Origin: an uncultured Alphaproteobacteria bacterium
GTDB lineage: Bacteria > Pseudomonadota > Alphaproteobacteria > Rs-D84
Assembly: GCA_944389595.1 (NCBI GenBank)
Contig: CALXMY010000002.1
Coordinates: forward strand, 57,913-121,912
Direction of reading: 5' to 3'
DNA length: 64,000 nucleotides
A program made the position numbers and the translations under genes. Shown one piece after another: positions 14,405 to 25,302 of the stretch. Every line of letters begins with the position of its first letter. The first letter of the stretch is position 1. The notes under the pieces were generated by a model. That model did not search any database, was not told the origin of the DNA, and was given only the letters and a program-made list of their open reading frames with translations.

Positions 14405-14481
14405 GGCGGGATAGCTCAGCTGGTTAGAGCAGTGGAATCATAATCCACGTGTCGGGGGTTCAAGTCCCTCTCCCGCTACCA
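14405..14481 (+). tRNA. tRNA with CAU anticodon (elongator tRNA-Met or tRNA-Ile2/lysidine)
   Basis: Cloverleaf: acceptor GGCGGGA/TCCCGCT, D-arm AGCTCAGCTGGTTAGAGC, anticodon loop AUCAUAA, T-arm GGGGG-TTCAAGT-CCCTC, encoded CCA. Confidence 0.8.
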
Positions 14482-14516: not shown

Positions 14517-15185
14517 TTAAAAATTATTTCCATTTTTATCGAATCGTTTATGTATACATCCAATTGTTGTTTTATGTATTCCGGCGGTTATATCATAATA
14601 CACATGACGGCCATCGCGACGCGATTTTACAAAATCGTCATCAGACAATTTTTTTAAATATTGTGATACCTTGATTTGTGGTATGTTTGTTCCCAATACA
14701 ATTTCGGACACACATGATTCACCACGGTATGTCAGATATTCCAATATGCGCATTTTGTCGTAATGGGCAAATAATTTTATTCTGTTTGCGGCCATGGTGG
14801 TATAATCGGTCGGCAGAATTTCTTTGTACGTGGCGCGCATAAATTTTAATTGATCCGTCATATGGCCAAATAATTTGCGCAGGCATACAAATATACTGGC
14901 CGGGTATTCGCGACATATTTCATAATAAATAAATATGCCCCTGCGGTGTGTTTGTACCAATTCAGCATCGCGCATTTTGCGCAATGATTGCGATACAATC
15001 ATTTGTTCCACGCCAACACCATGTGCAATTGCCGATACCGATGACATGCCATGTACATCCAAAAATTCCAATATGCGTAATCGCAACGGATGCGCAATGT
15101 ATGTTAACCCACGGACCGCGCGTGTCATGATGGAATCAGGTAACATACATTTTATTTTTACATCCGGTAAAACTGTTTGGGGCAT
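14517..15185 (-). CDS. tandem (duplicated) ArsR/SmtB-family winged-helix transcriptional regulator
   Basis: 222 aa with two ArsR-like HTH units (HPLRLRILEFL... and ...MRILEYLTYRGESCVSEI). Confidence 0.5.
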   Translation of the reverse strand: MPQTVLPDVKIKCMLPDSIMTRAVRGLTYIAHPLRLRILEFLDVHGMSSVSAIAHGVGVEQMIVSQSLRKMRDAELVQTHRRGIFIYYEICREYPASIFVCLRKLFGHMTDQLKFMRATYKEILPTDYTTMAANRIKLFAHYDKMRILEYLTYRGESCVSEIVLGTNIPQIKVSQYLKKLSDDDFVKSRRDGRHVYYDITAGIHKTTIGCIHKRFDKNGNNF

Positions 15186-15862: not shown

Positions 15863-16441
15863 ATGGAAAAAATTAAAAATGTACGCGAATTTGTTGAAAA
15901 ATTAGATGCCGCAAAAAAGGTTAATCCAAAAGATTTATCGTCTGACCAGGATTTAACCATTGGCATCATGAATCTGATATCAATCGAAGAGCATTTGATG
16001 TTTTCAGGTGCCAAAACCGGCAAGCATGAATTTTATGACTTAATCGACGAAGTTCGTGAACAGCGCAAGCAAATGATGCAAAAAATAATCCCATCGTACG
16101 AAGGCGAAGTGTGGTGTATATCAAAGCATTTATTGGCGGCATCCATGCGTTTGTTCGAGGTCGGCACCAAGGCATTGGCCGCCGGTGACAGGGCGGGTGC
16201 ATATGATTTGTTTGATCGGTCGTATGGATTGTATTGCATATTTTGGGGATTAAATATGGGCGGATTGGTTGGTGGCGCGGATGTTAAATGGGTTAAAACA
16301 CGTCCGTCAATATCAAACGTAAAAAAAAACGATAATGTCGCGCCGGTAATTGATGATTTGTCGGATTCAATGGCGGGCGACAGTAAAATCTCGCGTTTGA
16401 AACGTTGGGTAAAAAACGCGGTGAATTGCTGTATTGAATAA
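15863..16441 (+). CDS. hypothetical protein
   Basis: 192-aa ORF with an RBS-like AAGGGGG upstream. No recognisable domain. Confidence 0.45.
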   Translation: MEKIKNVREFVEKLDAAKKVNPKDLSSDQDLTIGIMNLISIEEHLMFSGAKTGKHEFYDLIDEVREQRKQMMQKIIPSYEGEVWCISKHLLAASMRLFEVGTKALAAGDRAGAYDLFDRSYGLYCIFWGLNMGGLVGGADVKWVKTRPSISNVKKNDNVAPVIDDLSDSMAGDSKISRLKRWVKNAVNCCIE

Positions 16442-16460
16442 TAAAAAATTCTGTTGAATA

Positions 16461-16487
16461 CACCCCGCATGCGCGGGGTGCTTTTTA
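16461..16487 (+). terminator. rho-independent terminator
   Basis: CACCCCGC-atgc-GCGGGGTG hairpin followed by CTTTTT. Confidence 0.7.
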
Positions 16488-16530
16488 TTCTTGATTTTTC
16501 GGGGCGGTTCCTTATAATGGCAAATACAGT

Positions 16531-16604
16531 GCCCTAATAGTCTAGTGGTAAAACACGTCCTTGGTAAGGACGAGTCGCAAGTCCGATTCTTGCTTAGGGC
16601 ACCA
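16531..16604 (+). tRNA. tRNA-Thr (GGU anticodon) with a non-canonical T-loop
   Basis: Acceptor GCCCTAA/TTAGGGC. Perfect anticodon arm CGTCC-UUGGUAA-GGACG. T-arm GCAAG-TCCGATT-CTTGC carries C at position 55 instead of U, and there is a D-stem mismatch. Encoded CCA. A TTGATT-16-TATAAT promoter lies at 16491-16518. Confidence 0.6.
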
Positions 16605-18138
16605 CTAAAGAATTCTCCCATGAAAAACTGTTAAATAGCCCGAAAATCGGGGATAAATTGATAGTCCCAAATTTTTGTTCTTTGTTGTAGGAAATTTTGT
16701 CCCTAAAGCACAAATTTAGGACTACTTGTTTGATGTTGTAATCTCCATTTTTCCATGCTTCAATGGGGCGTGAAATAAAATCAGATACATATCCGAAAGC
16801 TTCATCAAATGGCATTAATTCAGGGGTAAAGTTATCAACTTCTGATTGTAGTGATAATCTCTCTGATTCCAGCGCATTAATTTTTGCGTTAAGTGCCTTT
16901 TTCATAACATCGTTTGCGCTGATATATGCGTCAGTGATTAATGATTGTTCTTGTTCTATTGCAGATATGCGTTTCTTTTTTTCTTCGTTATTCGCACATG
17001 CAGCTTTATTGCGGTTTGAATATTCCCTTGTTGCTAATGCTCGTGCCAGCGCAATCAGATTCTCTTTTGGGGCAATTTTATTCAAAACCTCTGTTTCAAA
17101 TTCTTTATGCAAAATTTGCGGTGATACGTTGGCAAGTTTCTTTTTAGGGCAGTTCTTGTTTTGACACTGATAGTATGGATATTTGCCGCTTTTCGTCATA
17201 CTAGCAGTTAACGGGCGACCACACTCGGGACAGGTTATAAATCCCTTAAGTGGGAAGCGTTCATCATGTTTGTTGTATTTCTTGTGTCTAAGGCGGTTTC
17301 GTCCATGTAGGCGGTCTTGGATTAAATCAAATGTCGCAGTATCTATTAATGGTTCTATGTGCCATTTTTGGACTGGAATATCATATTTAGGATATGCGAA
17401 TATACCCGTATATTTGCGGTCGGTTAAGATGCGTTTCACAAAATCAAATATGTTTTTGGGGGTATGGAGACCGGCTAAGTGCATTCTTTCTGTTAAAAAG
17501 TTTGCTACATCGGTCTGAGATACTAATTTTGCGCTGGCGAATTGTTCTAGGGCTTCTTGTATTATCCCTGCCAATGGTTCATGTCGTTTTAATTCTTTGC
17601 GTGCGCCAATTTTTACGAATTGGTATCCCTTTGGTGGTTGCGTAATCCAATACCCATTTCTGGCGGCTTCACGCATACCGGCAATAGTTCTTTCTCTGTT
17701 CTGGTCTGCGAATAACTCTGCCTGTGCCGCTTCTATTGTTGCCATGAATTTCCCGACAGGGCTTGTTTCTAAAATTCCTTTGCATGTTGCCAATCTGTGC
17801 CCGCATCGTTCCATAGATTTGCGTAATTTAATGAAATCTCCTGCGTTGCGTGCTAATCGGCTTATGTCATAAAATAATACCAGACGAGGTTCTTTTATTT
17901 TTGATAGATAATCTATCATTTCTGCAAGTTGATCACGTCCTTCGGTTTTTGTTCCTGTTTTCGCTGCATCTATATAAAATTTTTCGATTTTGCAGTTATT
18001 CCGTTGCGCCCAAGATTCGCATGCCCATTGTTGTGTATCTAGGCCGTTGCCGTTATTGACCTGTTTATCGGTTGACACCCTATAATATGCAACCGCCTTT
18101 GTGATTTTATGATTTTCCATTGTGCAACACCTTGTCAA
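16594..18138 (-). CDS. large serine recombinase (phage-type serine integrase)
   Basis: N-terminal catalytic motif AYYRVSTDKQ, a recombinase domain and a C-terminal Cys zinc ribbon (CPECGRPL...CQNKNCP). The stop codon overlaps the last 11 nt of tRNA-Thr. The likely true start is MENHK at 18120. Confidence 0.85.
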   Translation of the reverse strand: MTRCCTMENHKITKAVAYYRVSTDKQVNNGNGLDTQQWACESWAQRNNCKIEKFYIDAAKTGTKTEGRDQLAEMIDYLSKIKEPRLVLFYDISRLARNAGDFIKLRKSMERCGHRLATCKGILETSPVGKFMATIEAAQAELFADQNRERTIAGMREAARNGYWITQPPKGYQFVKIGARKELKRHEPLAGIIQEALEQFASAKLVSQTDVANFLTERMHLAGLHTPKNIFDFVKRILTDRKYTGIFAYPKYDIPVQKWHIEPLIDTATFDLIQDRLHGRNRLRHKKYNKHDERFPLKGFITCPECGRPLTASMTKSGKYPYYQCQNKNCPKKKLANVSPQILHKEFETEVLNKIAPKENLIALARALATREYSNRNKAACANNEEKKKRISAIEQEQSLITDAYISANDVMKKALNAKINALESERLSLQSEVDNFTPELMPFDEAFGYVSDFISRPIEAWKNGDYNIKQVVLNLCFRDKISYNKEQKFGTINLSPIFGLFNSFSWENSLVVP

Positions 18139-18364
18139 AGATTGTGTTTATAATAATGATTAACTGGTCTCTATATTGCTCTATCTGTTTATCTGTTAAG
18201 TTTATATTGCCCAGATATTTACGACATTCTGCCACCGACATCGTCGCCATCGCGCCCACCAAAAGGTCTGCGTTTTGGCCTCGGTTTGTGCGTAAGCGAA
18301 AACAATGTTAAACAAATCCTTTATTACATCGGTTCGTGCGATATGTCGTAAAAAGGATTGATTT

Positions 18365-19105
18365 TTATATTTCATTCCATACCTCTGTCAGATTCAAAAT
18401 GAAATTTTTGTTAATCATTTTTTCTTGTGCCATTAATATAATATCGTCAATGCGTGCAATATTACACCGCCCGGCCATATCCATATACAGGTATATATCG
18501 TCTTTATTTTTTGTCTTGTCAAAACAAGTGTATGCAATTTCAAGCAGACTAAAATCTGTGCCTGGTAATTTTACCCGCAGGGATTCTTTCGTTTTTTGTA
18601 ATTTACGAACAGATACCCCAAAATCGCGACAGGCTTTTAATATATGAATATAAGCAATATCAATTTTTGAAAATGTATACCATTTTTCAATATTGCCGCG
18701 CTCGTCAATCAACAATTCTTGTTTGTGTGTCCAATCGTTTAAGCAGCGACTGCTGATAGGAATATCTTGTTTATGAAATTTTTTATCACGCAGGTCATTT
18801 AAGTATCGGGCTTCTGATAAGTTGTCAGAGCAGAACATAAACACATTCATAGATTCATTTGTTAAAACAACGTCGGCCAATCGGTAATCTTTTATCAAAA
18901 CTTGTGCCGGATATTCTTTATATGGGCGGCTGGATATTAGGGTGATGGCTTGTGTTAATTCCGTTGCCAGGTCGCGCAAATCCTGTCCCTTGAATTCAAT
19001 ATTGTGCTTTTTGCTTTTTATCCTCAGAATACCCGATTTTGCGTCAAAGTCTGTACCAGTTGGGTATTCCTTGGAATCGTAGATATGTTCTTGTTTTTTA
19101 TTCAT
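18365..19105 (-). CDS. hypothetical island protein
   Basis: 246-aa ORF. A possible HTH-like segment (SKIDIAYIHILKACRDFGVSVRKL). Preceded by a 20-bp perfect palindrome. Confidence 0.4.
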   Translation of the reverse strand: MNKKQEHIYDSKEYPTGTDFDAKSGILRIKSKKHNIEFKGQDLRDLATELTQAITLISSRPYKEYPAQVLIKDYRLADVVLTNESMNVFMFCSDNLSEARYLNDLRDKKFHKQDIPISSRCLNDWTHKQELLIDERGNIEKWYTFSKIDIAYIHILKACRDFGVSVRKLQKTKESLRVKLPGTDFSLLEIAYTCFDKTKNKDDIYLYMDMAGRCNIARIDDIILMAQEKMINKNFILNLTEVWNEI

Positions 19106-19118
19106 AGCACAACCTTAA

Positions 19119-19138
19119 ATATTACATATATGTAATAT
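19119..19138. promoter_or_regulatory. 20-bp perfect palindrome ATATTACATATATGTAATAT (candidate operator)
   Basis: Exact inverted repeat 14 bp upstream of the start codon of the 246-aa gene. Confidence 0.4.
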
Positions 19139-19374
19139 ATCAAATAAAAAGCCGTTGTAAAGCAATTTTTTTATAAAAAAATCAGCAAATACAATAATGT
19201 ATGCTTAAAATAGCATACATTGTATACCGTAAATTTAATTCGCGACACTTATTTTGATAAAAATCAGCGCTATGCCACGGAATACAAGGCGTTGCGCGGA
19301 AAATTCAAAAAGTCGTTAATATCGCGCATTTTTTATAATGCCCGGAAATCCGCCATTTTATGTCATAGTGTCGT

Positions 19375-19800
19375 CTAATGTGTTTTTATTTCCAGTTTAG
19401 GTCGCTCTTTGTCGGGGTTTTCTGAAAAATCTTTCGCACATTGAATTATTGCTATGTCTACTAAATGCTCGCGTGTTTCTGCAATATTAAATACATTTAC
19501 AATGTTGTGTTTAATCGCTTTATAGACTTGTTTTTCTCTCATAACGGTGTGCATATTGTCGACTACGCATTCACAGAGTTGGTGTGTCAATATGATATTG
19601 TCTAGTGTTGTGGTGCCTTTGGGAACATATTTATCAACGCAGACCGTTCTAACCTTTTCGTCATTCTTAAAAACATCTCTAAAATATTTGTTAACATACT
19701 TATTTCTGGATTCACACATTGCTAGATAATAGGTAATGCAAGATATGAGTGTTAAAGATATCAAACCAAGTGCAATATGAACTAGTATTTTTGTTTTCAT
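19375..19800 (-). CDS. hypothetical secreted/lipoprotein-like island protein
   Basis: 141 aa with an N-terminal signal sequence containing LISC. Confidence 0.4.
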   Translation of the reverse strand: MKTKILVHIALGLISLTLISCITYYLAMCESRNKYVNKYFRDVFKNDEKVRTVCVDKYVPKGTTTLDNIILTHQLCECVVDNMHTVMREKQVYKAIKHNIVNVFNIAETREHLVDIAIIQCAKDFSENPDKERPKLEIKTH

Positions 19801-19844
19801 AATTTATCTCTTTTTTTGGTTCGACAACCTTGTCGATTCAAAAT

Positions 19845-20231
19845 TTATTGACGCTTTTTATCAAAAATTGCCCAAATTATCGCAAACAGCCAAAGTAATA
19901 TCCCCGCCGGTCCCCATACAGAAAAGAATGTCAGCCAGTAAATACCCGTGCTATGTTTTCGATTAAGAAATGTCGCCAGACATACCGGAATCATACCCAT
20001 TGCAAATGCAATCAGTGCTGACAACAGAAAAACAAGACCGGAATCGTCAACCTGTAAATATGCATTCGACCACCCTAGCGCACCGGCGATAATTGCCCCT
20101 ATGCTAACCAACCACCACGCGCTTGCTGGAATTTTGGGTGTGTGCGGTATATTTGATTTTTCAGATTGTGTATTATTTATGCTAACTTTTTCAGACATTT
20201 TCTTACCCCTTTGATATAAAAAGACCGCCAA
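19845..20231 (-). CDS. hypothetical small membrane protein
   Basis: 128 aa with 3 predicted TM helices. Confidence 0.4.
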   Translation of the reverse strand: MAVFLYQRGKKMSEKVSINNTQSEKSNIPHTPKIPASAWWLVSIGAIIAGALGWSNAYLQVDDSGLVFLLSALIAFAMGMIPVCLATFLNRKHSTGIYWLTFFSVWGPAGILLWLFAIIWAIFDKKRQ

Positions 20232-20531
20232 AGGAATGACGGTCGGGTATTTTCAAAATCATAATTGCAATGACCCTGTGGATTTCGGCGAACCTGTTAT
20301 ATAGCCACAGACACCCGACCAAAAGGTCAGGCAAAACAGTGTAAAAAACACCATTATGCTGTCAAAAACGGATAACGATGTTTTCACACCGTGCAATTAT
20401 GGGTTTTGAACGACCCCGAACCCATATCCCTATGGATTCTTAAGCAAGTATTGCTACCGCCTCAATGTAAAATTATATTTTATAAAATATATTTATGCAA
20501 ACATAATTGTATATTTTATTGTTGGGAGTTA

Positions 20532-20981
20532 TTAAATTGTATCAAGTCTTTCTTTAAGATTGGCAATATCGTCTATAATTTTATTACATTTATTTATGTC
20601 TTGACGCCTAGAAGAGGTTTCAAAATTTTTGCCTGTTGTAAGTTCATATATATCATTAAATTGATTTCTAAAATCATAAATTTTTTTTCTAATAGAACTG
20701 AACTTATTGTGAAGATAATTCAAATTTGTTGCAATGTCTTTTTTGCATGATTTAATATTATTTTCTAGCATTAATTGATGTCCTGAAGGAAAAGATATTT
20801 TTCCCCAATACTCGCAACTAAGGGCTCTAAATTCGTCTAAAAGCCCTCTAATTAGAGATAGTCTATTTTCTTTTGCTCCCAATTTTAGTTGGTGCTTTGT
20901 TATAAAAAATGAAACTATTGCAATGCAAAGTTGTGCTATTATTCCAACAACTGTAATCCAATTATCTGTGGTCATGACCAT
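20532..20981 (-). CDS. small membrane-anchored coiled-coil protein (third gene of GHKL/STAS cassette)
   Basis: 149 aa. N-terminal TM helix VVGIIAQLCIAIVSFFI and a charged helical remainder. Lies 4 nt downstream of the STAS-like gene. The region is very AT-rich. Confidence 0.4.
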   Translation of the reverse strand: MVMTTDNWITVVGIIAQLCIAIVSFFITKHQLKLGAKENRLSLIRGLLDEFRALSCEYWGKISFPSGHQLMLENNIKSCKKDIATNLNYLHNKFSSIRKKIYDFRNQFNDIYELTTGKNFETSSRRQDINKCNKIIDDIANLKERLDTI

Positions 20982-20985
20982 TAAA

Positions 20986-21312
20986 TTATTCCTCTACAGA
21001 TTTTTTTATTATATGCCATATTGACGGTTCTAATGTTATGTCGTCATTACAAATAAAGCTTAATTTGCTTTTAATTGTTTCAAATGAAATATTATTTTCT
21101 CTTATAAGACCGCCAAAGGCTTCGTCCCAAAAAGATGCTCCAACACCATCTAAACCATCTAATATAATATTAATATGCTCTACTTTTTTATCATTAAATG
21201 CAGGAAGAATGAATTCTTCTCTGAAGCGTTGTCCAGAAAACTTACCATAACTTCTATACCTTCCAGCTGGTGCTTTATGAAAGTCTTTTGCGATATTAAT
21301 AGTTTTTATCAT
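20986..21312 (-). CDS. small STAS-like protein (DUF4325-like, anti-sigma-antagonist fold candidate)
   Basis: 108 aa. EHINIILDGLDGVGASFWDEAFGGL matches the strand-loop-helix signature of STAS-like/DUF4325 domains. Lies 9 nt downstream of the GHKL gene. Confidence 0.45.
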   Translation of the reverse strand: MIKTINIAKDFHKAPAGRYRSYGKFSGQRFREEFILPAFNDKKVEHINIILDGLDGVGASFWDEAFGGLIRENNISFETIKSKLSFICNDDITLEPSIWHIIKKSVEE

Positions 21313-21321
21313 TTTTTATCC

Positions 21322-22371
21322 TTATATGTTTACCTGCCACTCTATTAGAGTTCCATTTATGCTATGGATTTTGTCGTTTAACTGTTCTTGAATTCCATTT
21401 CCTCTGATATATTCACCTTTATCACTGATTATTCTTACAAATGCACTTTTTTTCAAAGATGTAACATAGTCGATTATTAGAGGCAAGCCATTTCCTCGGT
21501 TCTTTTGATTGGTTTGTGAAATTCCAGCATGTGTAGCCTCTCTAATTTTTGCCGCATCAGACATTCCTAATAGTTTTGTCAATAAGTTTGGCCTTGTTTT
21601 TGGTAATGATTTTGGAATGCCTATGCCTTGGTCAAAAAACATCACATTAAGAGTAGATGTGTTTCGGTTAATTGATGCAGACATCCACCACATTTTTTGT
21701 TTTAATGGGCTACTCATGATAAAATTATCAGGATAACCGTGACTTAACACGTTATCCATAGCTTCGTCAAGAGCGATTTTTAGTTTTTTCTTATTTGGCA
21801 ATACGTCAATAAGGTTACTCAAAGTATCACGAAAAGTTAGGACGTCATCGGGATTAACCAAATTTCCAGACATAAATTTTAAAAATATAACATCCTTTTT
21901 TCTTGGTTCTTTTCCAAATTCTGCAGGAATGTTTTGTATATTTAATAAATCAAACATCCCCATATCGTATAACAAGTATTTTATTTCTTCTTTCCAATTT
22001 TTGAAATCTACAACGTGCAATTTACCGTTTTTGCCTCTTATCCTACGTAATCTATCTAACTCCGAAGTAAAAACTAGCGCACAACCAGGGGTTATAAAAT
22101 CAATACCAGTAAAGTCTATTTTTAAAGAGCACAATGGATCATCTGCACATTGTCTAATATCATTTAGAAAAATTCTGGTTTCTTTATTTGTCAAATCAAG
22201 GCAGGTCGGGGCTTTTAATTTTTTTCTATACGGTGAATGTTTTGCAAGAAATTGACCTTTTTTACGAATTTGTGTTTTTCTTCTGTATAATTTTGCTCTT
22301 TTGCGCAAAAGAAACTGGCGATGTTTCCAGCGTCTTTCTTTGTTATTATTGTTATATTTTTTTATTACCAT
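21322..22371 (-). CDS. GHKL-family ATPase / RsbW-SpoIIAB-like serine kinase with N-terminal STAS-like domain
   Basis: 349 aa. Bergerat-fold motifs: N-box EAMDNVLSHG, G1 FFDQGIGIP (DxGxG) and G2 RGNGLPLI. The N-terminal ~100 aa include IDFTGIDFITPGCALVF, which resembles the STAS beta-strand/loop. Confidence 0.6.
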   Translation of the reverse strand: MVIKKYNNNNKERRWKHRQFLLRKRAKLYRRKTQIRKKGQFLAKHSPYRKKLKAPTCLDLTNKETRIFLNDIRQCADDPLCSLKIDFTGIDFITPGCALVFTSELDRLRRIRGKNGKLHVVDFKNWKEEIKYLLYDMGMFDLLNIQNIPAEFGKEPRKKDVIFLKFMSGNLVNPDDVLTFRDTLSNLIDVLPNKKKLKIALDEAMDNVLSHGYPDNFIMSSPLKQKMWWMSASINRNTSTLNVMFFDQGIGIPKSLPKTRPNLLTKLLGMSDAAKIREATHAGISQTNQKNRGNGLPLIIDYVTSLKKSAFVRIISDKGEYIRGNGIQEQLNDKIHSINGTLIEWQVNI

Positions 22372-22708
22372 TTTGTACTACATTGCATATATAGTATATA
22401 AATAGCTAAATATCAATATAAACAATGAAGAATACATAATGTGTATGTATTCCAATTCTATTTCGGTGTTTTATTGTTAAAATTATTGTTTTTTATAAAT
22501 CCGCCGTTTGCAACTTTACGATAATTCAAAATGCCACTTTCCTTAATAATCCTTGCATTTCGCATTATTTCATTATAAAATCTGTTCCAGTTGTCCCAAC
22601 TTTTATGTAGTAGGGGCACCAGAGTATTTATGAAGTCTTTTCCCGTTTTTAATTGTATTTTTACTATGCTTTTTTTATAATTAATCTGTAAATTACAGGG
22701 GTTATTTT

Positions 22709-23296
22709 ATGGCGGTGGAAGTAAATATCGGCGTTTTTGGTGCCAACGAGGGATTACAAGTCAGTCCTTGTTTTCAAAATAAAACTTATAGAAATACATT
22801 GGTGAATTTATATAACCCGAATGTTACGCATGGCGGGAAACAAATGTTTGTGTTCAAAACCCCGGAAAACGATGTTGTATACGCCATGACCATTGGCAGC
22901 GGCGGCCAAGACAAGTTGTTTTACGGTTTTAATGGCCGTCCGGGTTCTTTTGTTGGGGTTGCATTGGCGATAAAAAATGCGCAATTCAAAGATGTGAATC
23001 AGGCCATGGATATATTGGATTGGGCATATGAAAATAAAATCAAAGGCAATATCATAGAAAGCACAGGCGAAAATAAAAAGTTTGTCATAGACGGATACGA
23101 ATTTTCGGGCGACAAAATACAAAGTTTTATGGATTCTGCCATTGGGGACAGAATAACCCATGTTTGCCAACGTGGCGATTGGGGTACTTTTAAATATAAT
23201 GCCGATACGGATTCCAGGGTGGCAGTATACCGATTTCCATCGGAAAAATCTGATTTAGAAAACGCGATAAAAAAAAATCAAGGAAATGGGCTTTGA
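22709..23296 (+). CDS. hypothetical protein
   Basis: 195-aa ORF with host-like GC content. No recognisable domain. Confidence 0.4.
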   Translation: MAVEVNIGVFGANEGLQVSPCFQNKTYRNTLVNLYNPNVTHGGKQMFVFKTPENDVVYAMTIGSGGQDKLFYGFNGRPGSFVGVALAIKNAQFKDVNQAMDILDWAYENKIKGNIIESTGENKKFVIDGYEFSGDKIQSFMDSAIGDRITHVCQRGDWGTFKYNADTDSRVAVYRFPSEKSDLENAIKKNQGNGL

Positions 23297-23451
23297 CCCA
23301 CATGAAGTGGCCGAATATATTTTGAAAAAACAAAAAGATTTTTAATACTTGCAATTGTGATAATTGCATTATAGAATCCGATTCAGATGGTTCAAAATAT
23401 TATGTTTTGAACATCAGGGAAGATTTATCTTCTGTTCTTTTGTTTTTTTGT

Positions 23452-23477
23452 CCCCGGGGCATGCCCCGGGGTTTTTG
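23452..23477 (+). terminator. rho-independent terminator
   Basis: 20-nt perfect palindrome CCCCGGGGCATGCCCCGGGG followed by TTTTT. Confidence 0.6.
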
Positions 23478-23578
23478 TATAAAAGGGGATTTTATACCTT
23501 GCTTTTTTATTAGTTGTATGGCTATAATATTTTTATACCTGTTATTAATAATCGTAATCAGACCAAGAGGTATGCTAC

Positions 23579-25072
23579 ATGAAAAAATTTTTACCCATTA
23601 TTTTAGTTTTAACATTGGCCGCATGTGGCGGTGGTTCTGGTGGTGGTAATGTTGGCAATGGCGGTAATGCCGGGGTTCCGGGTGGCGGCGAAATATTTAA
23701 TCCGGATGATTTTGTTAAACCCGAATATAACGGCAATGTGTCACATGATGTTGTGGACAGTAATGCCGCTGTTTTAACAATGCATTCCAGTGTTTTTGAT
23801 GAAACGGCCAGAACACAGTATTTAATAGATGCATTTGGTGAAGAATATTATAATGCGTTAATTGCCGAATTGTCTGGCAAGGTAAATGATGCTGTGGTAG
23901 ACGCGGTGGAAAATCGCGTCGGGTCTGCACGTGATAACGGTGGTAAAAATTTTTGTAAATCGGAACGCGATTGTAATCAAATGATATTTGACCAAATGCG
24001 GGAAGTTTTGGACAATTTAGATAATCTGGATGATATGAATAATAAAGATATTCGTAATGCATTAATTGCCGCCGGATTTGGAAAGGAAATTTCAGGGCAT
24101 TGGGATGATATCAAAGATTATGTGAAAAATCATATGAATATTGATGATATTAAAAACCAGGGCGAAGAAATATACAATACACCGGGCAAGGGCAGTGGTG
24201 AATTCAATTTGAAAAATACAGATTTCAAGGCAATGTTAACCACGATACAAAATAATGTTGCTGATATCATGACATTACAGATTGATAATGATGGGCGTGT
24301 TATTGGTGTCGTGTTTAAAGATGTGGGATCTGGGTCAAGCAGAGAAAGTCCGGCAATATTATATTCGGGATTAAAGCGCAACGATGATACAAATCGTTTT
24401 GATTTTTCAGATCCAGATGGCGAAATGCCAACATCGGGCGAAATGGAAATGATATCATATGCCCAGGATTTAGGATTAAGATATTCTGATTTTGGCGTTT
24501 TGGTTGGTGCAGAAAATGCAAAAATTACGGTGACTGATGAAGATGGTAATGTCAGTGAACGTGATTTGTCGGGATATAAATTGCCATTTGCCGGTGGATA
24601 TGATGTAAAGCGTATTGATGATAAAAAACAAATTGCATCAAATGTGACTTTCTATGGTTTTGCAAATGGTACGGTTGAACCCGCAAATGCCAGTGGTGCC
24701 AAAGCGTTACCAATTGAAAGCAAAAATGCAACATTAACATTTAATGCCACCAATCGCGAAGAGCATTTAACCGCGAATTTTGATAATTGGTATAAATTAG
24801 ATGTCATAAAAAATGGTATGGGCCAAGTCATATGGGTAAATACCGATGATTGTGGGCGGCGTATTCCAACGGAATATGTGGTTAAAGATACACCATTGAC
24901 CGATGGTGTACAAAATGAATCCGTGTATTTTAATACCGAATTTTATGGCGATGACAATATCCCGGCCGAGGCCGTTGCATTATTTCAATATCAACAAAAG
25001 GTTATGGATACGCCCAAGGAAGGCGGCGGGAATTTGAATATATTCCTGGGGTTTGGGGGACGAACCAAATAA
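23579..25072 (+). CDS. hypothetical surface/periplasmic lipoprotein with Gly-rich linker
   Basis: 497 aa. Signal peptide and lipobox LAACGG, immediately followed by GGSGGGNVGNGGNAGVPGGG (a flexible linker as in neisserial-type surface lipoproteins). Confidence 0.55.
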   Translation: MKKFLPIILVLTLAACGGGSGGGNVGNGGNAGVPGGGEIFNPDDFVKPEYNGNVSHDVVDSNAAVLTMHSSVFDETARTQYLIDAFGEEYYNALIAELSGKVNDAVVDAVENRVGSARDNGGKNFCKSERDCNQMIFDQMREVLDNLDNLDDMNNKDIRNALIAAGFGKEISGHWDDIKDYVKNHMNIDDIKNQGEEIYNTPGKGSGEFNLKNTDFKAMLTTIQNNVADIMTLQIDNDGRVIGVVFKDVGSGSSRESPAILYSGLKRNDDTNRFDFSDPDGEMPTSGEMEMISYAQDLGLRYSDFGVLVGAENAKITVTDEDGNVSERDLSGYKLPFAGGYDVKRIDDKKQIASNVTFYGFANGTVEPANASGAKALPIESKNATLTFNATNREEHLTANFDNWYKLDVIKNGMGQVIWVNTDDCGRRIPTEYVVKDTPLTDGVQNESVYFNTEFYGDDNIPAEAVALFQYQQKVMDTPKEGGGNLNIFLGFGGRTK

Positions 25073-25083
25073 ATTAAAATGAT

Positions 25084-25114
25084 AATTCCGCCCATTTGGA
25101 CGGAATTATTTTTT
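25084..25114 (+). terminator. rho-independent terminator
   Basis: AATTCCGCCC-attt-GGACGGAATT hairpin followed by ATTTTTTAT. Confidence 0.6.
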
Positions 25115-25302
25115 ATATTACTTGCATTTTATATATTTGCGGTATAAAATTTTTGACTGGTAATATTTAAGGGTGCGGGAACGATGATGTGACTGACAAC
25201 CACGGAGTTCGCAAATCCCAATTCAAAGTGACAAATCAGGGTGGCACCGCGCAAAATAAAATTGCGCCCCTGAAACATTAAAAACGCGGGTGCCGTTTCC
25301 AA

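Follow-up and report, generated by a model that had tools for sequence, protein, structure and literature searches.

A mobile cassette of a STAS–GHKL kinase-type protein, a DUF4325 protein and a membrane protein: a candidate phage-exclusion switch of the VapKSC/CapKS kind

Why are a kinase-type protein related to SpoIIAB and RsbW, a small STAS-like protein and a membrane protein encoded together on an integrase-bearing island? This question is raised by a cassette of three genes, g1 (K), g2 (S) and g3, at 20,532–22,371 of a stretch of DNA from an uncultured Alphaproteobacteria bacterium (lineage Rs-D84; contig CALXMY010000002.1 of assembly GCA_944389595.1, positions 57,913 to 121,912). The whole stretch of 64,000 nucleotides is called the window here. 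On balance, a mobile and self-contained kinase switch of the VapKSC/CapKS kind is the probable nature of the cassette; its use would most likely be phage exclusion or abortive infection, and the mechanistic details of the switch are less certain than its overall kind.

The CapK/CapS pair consists of a kinase with helix-turn-helix (HTH), STAS and GHKL domains, which is switched on by single-stranded DNA (ssDNA), and a repressor with a STAS domain and a winged HTH (wHTH); it controls immune operons (Chambers et al., EMBO J 2026, PMC13373217), and it is located downstream of restriction–modification (R-M) systems in 20% of cases (PMC13373217). In VapKSC, the STAS-GHKL protein VapK phosphorylates VapS at S48, the PIN toxin VapC is released, and E. 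coli is protected against phage Bas42 (PMC13373217). This phosphorylation-release was shown both genetically and structurally, the STAS protein being bound to the toxin in the VapS2VapC2 crystal structure, and VapKSC behaves as a toxin–antitoxin (TA) system (PMC13373217). Anti-sigma-type GHKL kinases are known to be dedicated to their STAS partner (PMC13373217), and a VapC clade "coupled to DUF4325" had been noted in the 2017 PIN survey (PMC5499597). The VapK and VapS sequences compared below were taken from the supplement of PMC13373217.

Domains of the three proteins

First of all, g1 is, as judged from its AlphaFold2 model, a STAS domain fused to a serine-kinase domain of the anti-sigma type. 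The model, based on 18 homologues (predicted local distance difference test, pLDDT, 79.4; predicted template modelling score, pTM, 0.78), consists of a long helix (residues 9–44), an alpha/beta domain (about 48–170) and a GHKL domain (about 174–348). The assignment is made because the model contains these domains and because its top Foldseek matches are four SpoIIAB structures; SpoIIAB and RsbW are the closest structural relatives. In the translation of g1, the motifs EAMDNVLSHG (residues 203–212), DQGIG (247–251) and GNGL (293–296) are all present, and so is the STAS-like segment IDFTGIDFITPGCALVF (85–101). Across 23 family members and VapK, E203, N207 and H211 of the N-box, D247 and G249 of the G1 motif, and R292, G293 and G295 of the G2 motif are invariant, that is to say, the catalytic motifs are intact. 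The HATPase_c_2 match of g1 in Pfam is sub-threshold (17.8 bits vs 27.4), and by the model the GHKL fold is established by structure rather than by Pfam profile. An HTH was detected neither by Pfam nor in the AlphaFold2 model of g1, the N-terminus being a single basic helix, which is retained by most g1 relatives in the alignment and may be a contact with nucleic acid or membrane.

The second protein, g2, matches PF14213 (DUF4325) with an E-value of 1.9e-10, above the Pfam threshold, and is a STAS domain alone, without a wHTH in Pfam. Its residues 48–69 are NIILDGLDGVGASFWDEAFGGL. Ser60, which starts the predicted helix 2, is invariant in all 57 cluster representatives within the motif G[S/R/A/T]SF, and the phospho-acceptor of g2 is probably this residue. 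In three independent alignments, the g2 residue opposite S48 of VapS is number 59, an Ala in the window and S/R/A/T among family members, and it is in this column that canonical STAS proteins have their first Ser. Sequence searches of the PDB gave little: phmmer returned nothing useful for g1 or g2, the g2 family profile found at best the STAS protein 3t6o (E 0.13), and the VapS/CapS entries 9Z7O and 9Z71-73 went unmatched in the PDB copy searched. As a side observation, the match of g2 to phrog_5816, a phage protein family of 441 aa, is confined to the C-terminal 100 positions of that family; therefore, phage fusion proteins with a DUF4325 tail exist.

The third protein, g3, has one strongly hydrophobic segment near its N-terminus (residues 5–23; Kyte-Doolittle, 19-residue window ≥1.6), followed by a basic stretch and then about 100 helical residues. 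The AlphaFold2 model, obtained from a shallow alignment, shows a helix at residues 6–34 and an all-helical remainder with low confidence. A strong hydrophobic segment is present in 45 of 51 g3-family representatives, and one BLAST cluster holds 42 of the 45 unique third proteins, which have the motifs [YF]W and TGxxFE in common. Neither a Pfam family nor a PIN match was found in 38 family members of g3. The sole PADLOC match is a non-significant one to a DRT transmembrane (TM) model (E 0.018), and PHROG gives a weak holin match to the TM region (E 0.003). The g3 homologues of seven loci (L057, L060, L062 and L064–L067) have an extra C-terminal TM helix, some with extended tails. Two near-identical metagenome variants differ by a C-terminal truncation of g3, which has 125 aa in one (L016, 9384–9761) and 150 aa in the other (L018, 9384–9836).

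A preliminary description, made from the sequence of the window alone, had proposed these identities: Bergerat-fold motifs and a STAS-like strand-loop in an anti-sigma-type GHKL protein, a second small protein of the DUF4325/STAS type, and a single-pass membrane protein of helical character. All of them are borne out by the translations, the g1 model, the PF14213 match and the one N-terminal hydrophobic helix of g3. The profile search that it had suggested divides: g2 passes the threshold of PF14213 and g1 stays below that of HATPase_c_2.

Co-conservation, mobility and genomic contexts

Relatives of g1 were collected from metagenome assemblies, plasmids, IMG/VR viral contigs (46 loci), GTDB genomes (22 loci) and one cultured phage; profile hidden Markov models (HMMs) of g1, g2 and g3 were run over all open reading frames (ORFs) of the collected loci, and g1 was clustered at 85% identity. 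All three genes occur in the same order and on the same strand in 51 of 58 g1 clusters, so the co-occurrence on which the preliminary description had made its proposal of a system depend is found. Among the remaining clusters, three are cut by contig ends, and in four the third ORF is small and diverges too far to be caught by the HMM. The genes of the triad overlap or are separated by at most about 20 nt in nearly all loci. No collected locus has g1 and g3 without g2, or g3 without g2, and no PIN gene or other kind of third gene was met among the 58 clusters. In one Alphaproteobacteria metagenome-assembled genome (L074, 7869–11846), g1 is cut to 302 aa and g2 and g3 follow 2.3 kb further on, with a 307-aa ORF on the opposite strand between them; this cassette looks split by an insertion.

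The family is widely spread. A profile search of 1.84 billion representatives (50% identity clusters) gave 3402 K-family matches at E≤1e-3, 827 of them with E≤1e-30; the weaker tail may partly be other K-type kinases. The nearest relatives belong to uncultured gut and rumen Alphaproteobacteria/Rhodospirillales of GTDB, and other hosts include Desulfarculus, Phycisphaerae, Magnetococcales, Pseudomonadales and Nitrospinales. With the window g1 as query, tblastn found no match in cultured phages; with a distant g1-family member it led to Marinobacter phage AS1. Cassettes of the P2 hotspot described below had no megablast or blastn match in E. coli genomes and phages.

The same cassette with the flanks of the window was found in at least 22 metagenome contigs. 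At another locus, L090 of a related bacterium, a cassette with 83% identity is carried by a serine-recombinase island which is not that of the window, occupies another place in the chromosome and bears other cargo; its flanks have no similarity to those of the window. Positions 20532–22369 of the window correspond to 10004–11840 of L090 with a DNA identity of 79.5%, and the similarity spans only from the g3 stop to the g1 start. Since the similarity ends at the cassette borders, the three genes are the unit of exchange. The guanine-plus-cytosine (GC) content of the cassette is 31.0%, whereas the window averages 40.8% (sd 2.9%, 1840-nt windows), and the cassette is the lowest-GC stretch of its length in the 64 kb, with 0.3% of windows equally low. 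The AT-richness and horizontal origin claimed beforehand are thus both upheld, the first by the GC minimum, the second by this minimum together with homology that is confined to the cassette. Beside this, L090 and L010, both from related gut Alphaproteobacteria, have a common neighbourhood (Peptidase_U32 ... Colicin_V/Glutaredoxin/Sod_Fe/Spermine_synth), in which the L010 copy is on a tyrosine-integrase island and the L090 copy on a serine-recombinase island; this neighbourhood may be an integration hotspot.

The contexts of the homologous cassettes are those of prophages and defence islands. In six loci (L020, L037, L047, L050, L053 and L064), g1 is preceded, 14–133 nt upstream, by a cI-like XRE/S24 repressor gene of the same orientation, and of the 18 cI-like repressor genes that the loci contain, every one shares the strand of the triad. 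The position directly after cI is that of rexAB in lambda. In Marinobacter phage AS1, the cI-like repressor AS1_42 is followed by the triad AS1_41/40/39, divergent from cro, and in Francisella phage KIRK, CI is followed by a hypothetical protein of 293 aa, a DUF4325 protein of 112 aa and a TM protein of 125 aa (PMC7924643), the triad being Fhv_0046-48. In L024, L029 and L034, the triad is inserted between P2 gpA and the portal gene gpQ, a defence hotspot holding old and tin (Rousset et al., PMC9122126), and in one further prophage the cassette directly follows tail gene J.

At other loci the neighbours are of further kinds. In L007, the triad stands between a DpnII R-M system, which it follows directly, and an Mrr nuclease; one homologue is on an integrase/Fic/IS110 element, adjoining Mrr_cat_2 and a helicase-nuclease; another is on a serine-recombinase island that also bears AAA_15/AAA_21, SNF2, ResIII-RE and a methyltransferase; and plasmid homologues adjoin MazEF or HigBA-type TA loci. 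The commonest Pfam families in 294 flanking proteins are phage portal, S24 repressor peptidase, terminase, integrase and P2 gpA. Neither a sigma factor nor a PP2C phosphatase occurs in the eight distinct homologous contexts for which Pfam lists were made, or in the 25 most frequent families per batch for the 294 neighbours, a list which single occurrences could escape. The lack of a sigma-factor neighbour, noted for the window in the preliminary description, is therefore seen again in these contexts, which are mobile-element and defence contexts and not sigma regulons.

Relation to known systems, the proposed switch and its rivals

Among described systems, VapKSC is the nearest. Both are three-gene operons of the same order, mobile and associated with defence islands. 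In both g1 and VapK, the K protein consists of a STAS domain and an anti-sigma-type GHKL domain without HTH, and VapK has every invariant catalytic position of g1 as well as its STAS "IDF" strand. The S protein, encoded right after K, is in both a DUF4325 protein of about 110 aa (PF14213: VapS, E 2.7e-17; g2, 1.9e-10). Moreover, the phosphorylation-gated effector switch that the preliminary description had proposed for the cassette is the mechanism shown experimentally for VapKSC. There are differences as well. The third gene here encodes a membrane-anchored helical protein, whereas VapC is a PIN nuclease; g1 has an N-terminal helix with a charge of +21, whereas VapK has none in the alignment and CapK has an HTH there; and g2 lacks the C-terminal helix (VapS residues 94–116) that reaches the VapC active site.

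CapK/CapS shares with the cassette a GHKL kinase with internal STAS and a STAS substrate encoded directly downstream, sometimes after an R-M system, as in L007. However, g1 has no HTH and g2 no wHTH, no CBASS, Bub or Thoeris operon lies downstream (g2 is followed by the small g3, and beyond it the genes are unrelated), and the output would be a protein encoded in the cassette, not transcription. SpoIIAB–SpoIIAA and RsbW–RsbV likewise combine a kinase fold of the anti-sigma GHKL branch with a STAS protein, but here the kinase carries a fused STAS domain of its own, the location is mobile, the output is a membrane protein, and no sigma or PP2C gene is nearby. With lambda RexAB, the cassette shares the place directly after cI, in co-orientation, in several lambdoid prophages, and the logic of a cytoplasmic sensor with a small membrane protein; no similarity in sequence or fold was detected, the cassette has three components and a kinase/STAS switch, and the likeness is limited to position and logic only.

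How the cassette might work can be pictured on this basis. At rest, g2 would bind the cytoplasmic domain of g3 and keep it inactive. An infection-linked signal, by analogy a nucleic-acid species such as ssDNA, would activate g1, in which the basic tail or the STAS/GHKL groove might serve as its sensor. The activated kinase would phosphorylate the invariant Ser with which helix 2 of g2 begins, g2 would release g3, and the freed g3, in the role of the PIN toxin VapC, would damage or depolarise the inner membrane, so that growth of the infected cell stops. As for the trigger, the column of the ssDNA-stacking aromatic (VapK F54) is F92 in the window g1 and F/N/S/T/K/Q in the g1 family, and because it varies in this way the trigger of g1 need not be ssDNA, as far as the alignment tells. 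We regard it as an attractive idea that falls somewhat short of an even chance that the family as a whole, with this cassette as its founding example, is a widespread unnamed abortive-infection or exclusion system, in which an anti-sigma-type kinase/STAS switch gates a membrane-damaging protein, the trigger is something other than ssDNA and is possibly sensed via the basic helix, and the cassette is plugged into rexAB-like and P2-hotspot sites of prophages in many phyla.

Several points weigh against reading the cassette as a kinase switch of the VapKSC/CapKS kind with a role in phage exclusion. BLASTP finds only a weak similarity between g1 and VapK (E 0.16); hhalign with VapK (alignment A6) covers only the C-terminal GHKL part (E 1.8e-5, probability 78%), and for g2 and VapS it reaches a probability of only 6%. 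Since these pairwise scores are marginal, homology to VapK and VapS rests on the Pfam family, the fold and the motifs. The ssDNA-stacking aromatic (VapK F54/CapK W68) is not conserved in the g1 family, and by the alignments the invariant Ser of g2 comes one residue after the VapS S48 column, which makes S60 a probable and not a certain phospho-acceptor. The g3 model (pLDDT 51.7) is too poor for a fold, and no similarity of g3 to known pore-formers or holins was detected in PADLOC and PHROG beyond the weak TM-region matches. Finally, known PADLOC components, mostly of R-M systems, were met close to no more than a minority of the loci.

The same parts could be wired in reverse, which is unlikely but deserves the most attention among the alternatives. 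In that arrangement, g1 would sequester the cytoplasmic domain of g3, unphosphorylated g2 would displace g1 and so free g3, and phosphorylation of g2 would reset the switch. SpoIIAB and RsbW are displaced from their output protein by a STAS antagonist, SpoIIAA or RsbV. These two, the best structural matches of g1, bind the output protein directly, and the strict co-occurrence of g1-type and g3-family genes over 58 clusters would fit a direct contact between K and the effector. In VapKSC, however, it is the STAS protein rather than the kinase that binds the toxin (PMC13373217), and no gene for a PP2C phosphatase, which would regenerate unphosphorylated g2, was seen in the annotated contexts.

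It is less probable still that the cassette is a TA-like addiction module which stabilises islands, plasmids and prophages and has no dedicated anti-phage role. The cassette is always on mobile elements, including the plasmids with adjoining MazEF or HigBA-type loci; its gene logic is TA-like, g3 being never seen without g2; and VapKSC itself behaves as a TA system. Against this, placement in the P2 gpA–gpQ hotspot and after cI is typical of exclusion genes expressed in lysogens, and a three-component kinase-gated design exceeds what stabilisation needs. Addiction and an anti-phage role are compatible with each other and not mutually exclusive.

It would be surprising if g3 were merely a membrane anchor or sensor and the kinase itself the effector, acting by broad phosphorylation of host or phage proteins as in Stk2-type systems. 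The absence of a recognisable toxic domain in g3, the intact catalytic residues of g1 and a membrane location suited to sensing DNA injection speak for it. However, anti-sigma-type GHKL kinases are dedicated to their STAS partner, VapK acting via VapS (PMC13373217), and small single-TM proteins are common as terminal defence effectors (PMC9122126).

Two further explanations were considered and rejected. Both have little in their favour, given a g2 without DNA-binding domain, flanks that bear no relation to each other from locus to locus, and non-phage elements among the carriers. That the cassette controls the transcription of neighbouring genes in the manner of CapKS, or is an ordinary sigma regulon of the RsbW/RsbV type, is scarcely credible: CapK and CapS are the same kind of K–S pair and follow R-M systems in a fifth of cases (20%, PMC13373217), as the triad of L007 follows DpnII, but g2 lacks a wHTH and g1 an HTH, g3 is always the next gene and no immune operon follows, the flanks differ between loci without relation, and the annotated contexts contain no sigma factor. 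The least credible of all is a phage lysis-timing device with a holin-like g3 under kinase control, to which the weak PHROG holin match and the many prophage loci might point, since the cassette is also on non-phage islands and plasmids without lysis genes, and the phage copies adjoin cI, gpA–gpQ or tail genes, with the lysozyme of AS1 on the other arm.

The triad was searched for under other names. PADLOC-DB v2.0.0 has no match for g1 or g2, and none for the 23 g1 family members (E≤0.01). Full-text literature searches for a named defence system of STAS, GHKL and TM proteins returned the CapKS/VapKSC paper only (PMC13373217), in the text and Dataset EV3 of which the membrane variant is absent, and a 2026 survey of P2/P4 hotspots makes no mention of STAS, GHKL or DUF4325. 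The earlier remark that the triad was not recognised as a named defence system is accordingly right in so far as it has neither a PADLOC model nor a name in the literature, and needs amending in so far as it is related to VapKSC/CapKS, as a variant thereof.

Cassette layout, host island and significance

The positions of the genes, domains and signals are collected in Table 1. The three tightly spaced minus-strand genes reported in the preliminary description are exactly those of the ORF list for 20532–22371, with spacers of 9 nt (g1/g2) and 4 nt (g2/g3), and Shine-Dalgarno-like motifs, AAGGA and GAGGA, are located within the 3′ ends of g1 and g2. Because the spacers are short and these motifs lie inside the preceding gene, g1, g2 and g3 look translationally coupled. 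A promoter candidate and a terminator-like hairpin were found by consensus scan; the count of sigma-70-like promoter sites in the region is not higher than in shuffles, and the same holds for the terminator scan.

Table 1. Positions of the cassette genes, their domains and associated elements in the window
Feature	Position	Strand	Details
g1 (K)	21322-22371	-	349 aa; STAS + GHKL (RsbW/SpoIIAB-like) serine-kinase-type protein
Basic N-terminal helix of g1	22207-22371	-	residues 1-55; 22 K/R, 1 D/E (charge +21)
STAS-like domain of g1	21862-22230	-	residues ~48-170
GHKL ATP-binding/kinase domain of g1	21328-21852	-	residues ~174-348; N-box, G1, G2
g2 (S)	20986-21312	-	108 aa; DUF4325 STAS-like protein
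g3	20532-20981	-	149 aa; membrane-anchored helical protein, putative effector
N-terminal TM helix of g3	20898-20960	-	about residues 8-28
Sigma-70-like promoter candidate TTGGGA-16-TATAAT	22572-22599	-	upstream of g1; consensus scan, 10/12 matches; weak
Terminator-like hairpin	20375-20392	-	~140 nt 3′ of g3; consensus scan; weak
Large serine recombinase	16594-18138	-	Resolvase E 2.1e-30, Recombinase, Zn_ribbon_recom; phrog_95 integrase E 5.6e-75

The serine integrase that had been noticed beside the cassette is a large serine recombinase. Its 3′ end is overlapped by 11 nt by tRNA-Thr(ggt) (16531–16604) on the opposite strand; an att-like direct repeat linking this end to the far side of the island was not found within 16400–25300. 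Between recombinase and cassette (18365–20231) are three cargo genes, which encode a 246-aa protein that matches no family, a 141-aa protein with the lipoprotein-like signal MKTKILVHIALGLISLTLISC, and a 128-aa multi-TM protein with a weak PHROG match to "immunity to superinfection" (E 0.0048). Further away, at 14517–15185 on the minus strand, a 222-aa protein with two tandem ArsR-type HTH_5 domains adjoins tRNA-Met (14405–14481).

Since the K–S switch was characterised in 2026 with VapKSC and CapKS, the triad is not categorically new; to judge by PADLOC and by the literature that could be searched, the triad with a membrane effector is an undescribed, widespread variant. If the proposed function is true, the outputs of the kinase–STAS immune switch, so far the transcription factor CapS and the nuclease toxin VapC, would be joined by a membrane effector, which would support the K–S sensor pair as a general modular front end of bacterial immunity. 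A large K family sits in the best-known exclusion loci of temperate phages, yet its genes have neither a PADLOC model nor any annotation of function. As cultured models, Marinobacter phage AS1, Francisella phage KIRK and the phage-plasmid of Pasteurella multocida PF1 would be suitable, and with them it could be asked what the kinase senses and how a membrane protein of about 150 aa halts infection. If this function is true, uncultured gut Alphaproteobacteria would, with the cassette, gain a further candidate among the systems of their defence repertoire.

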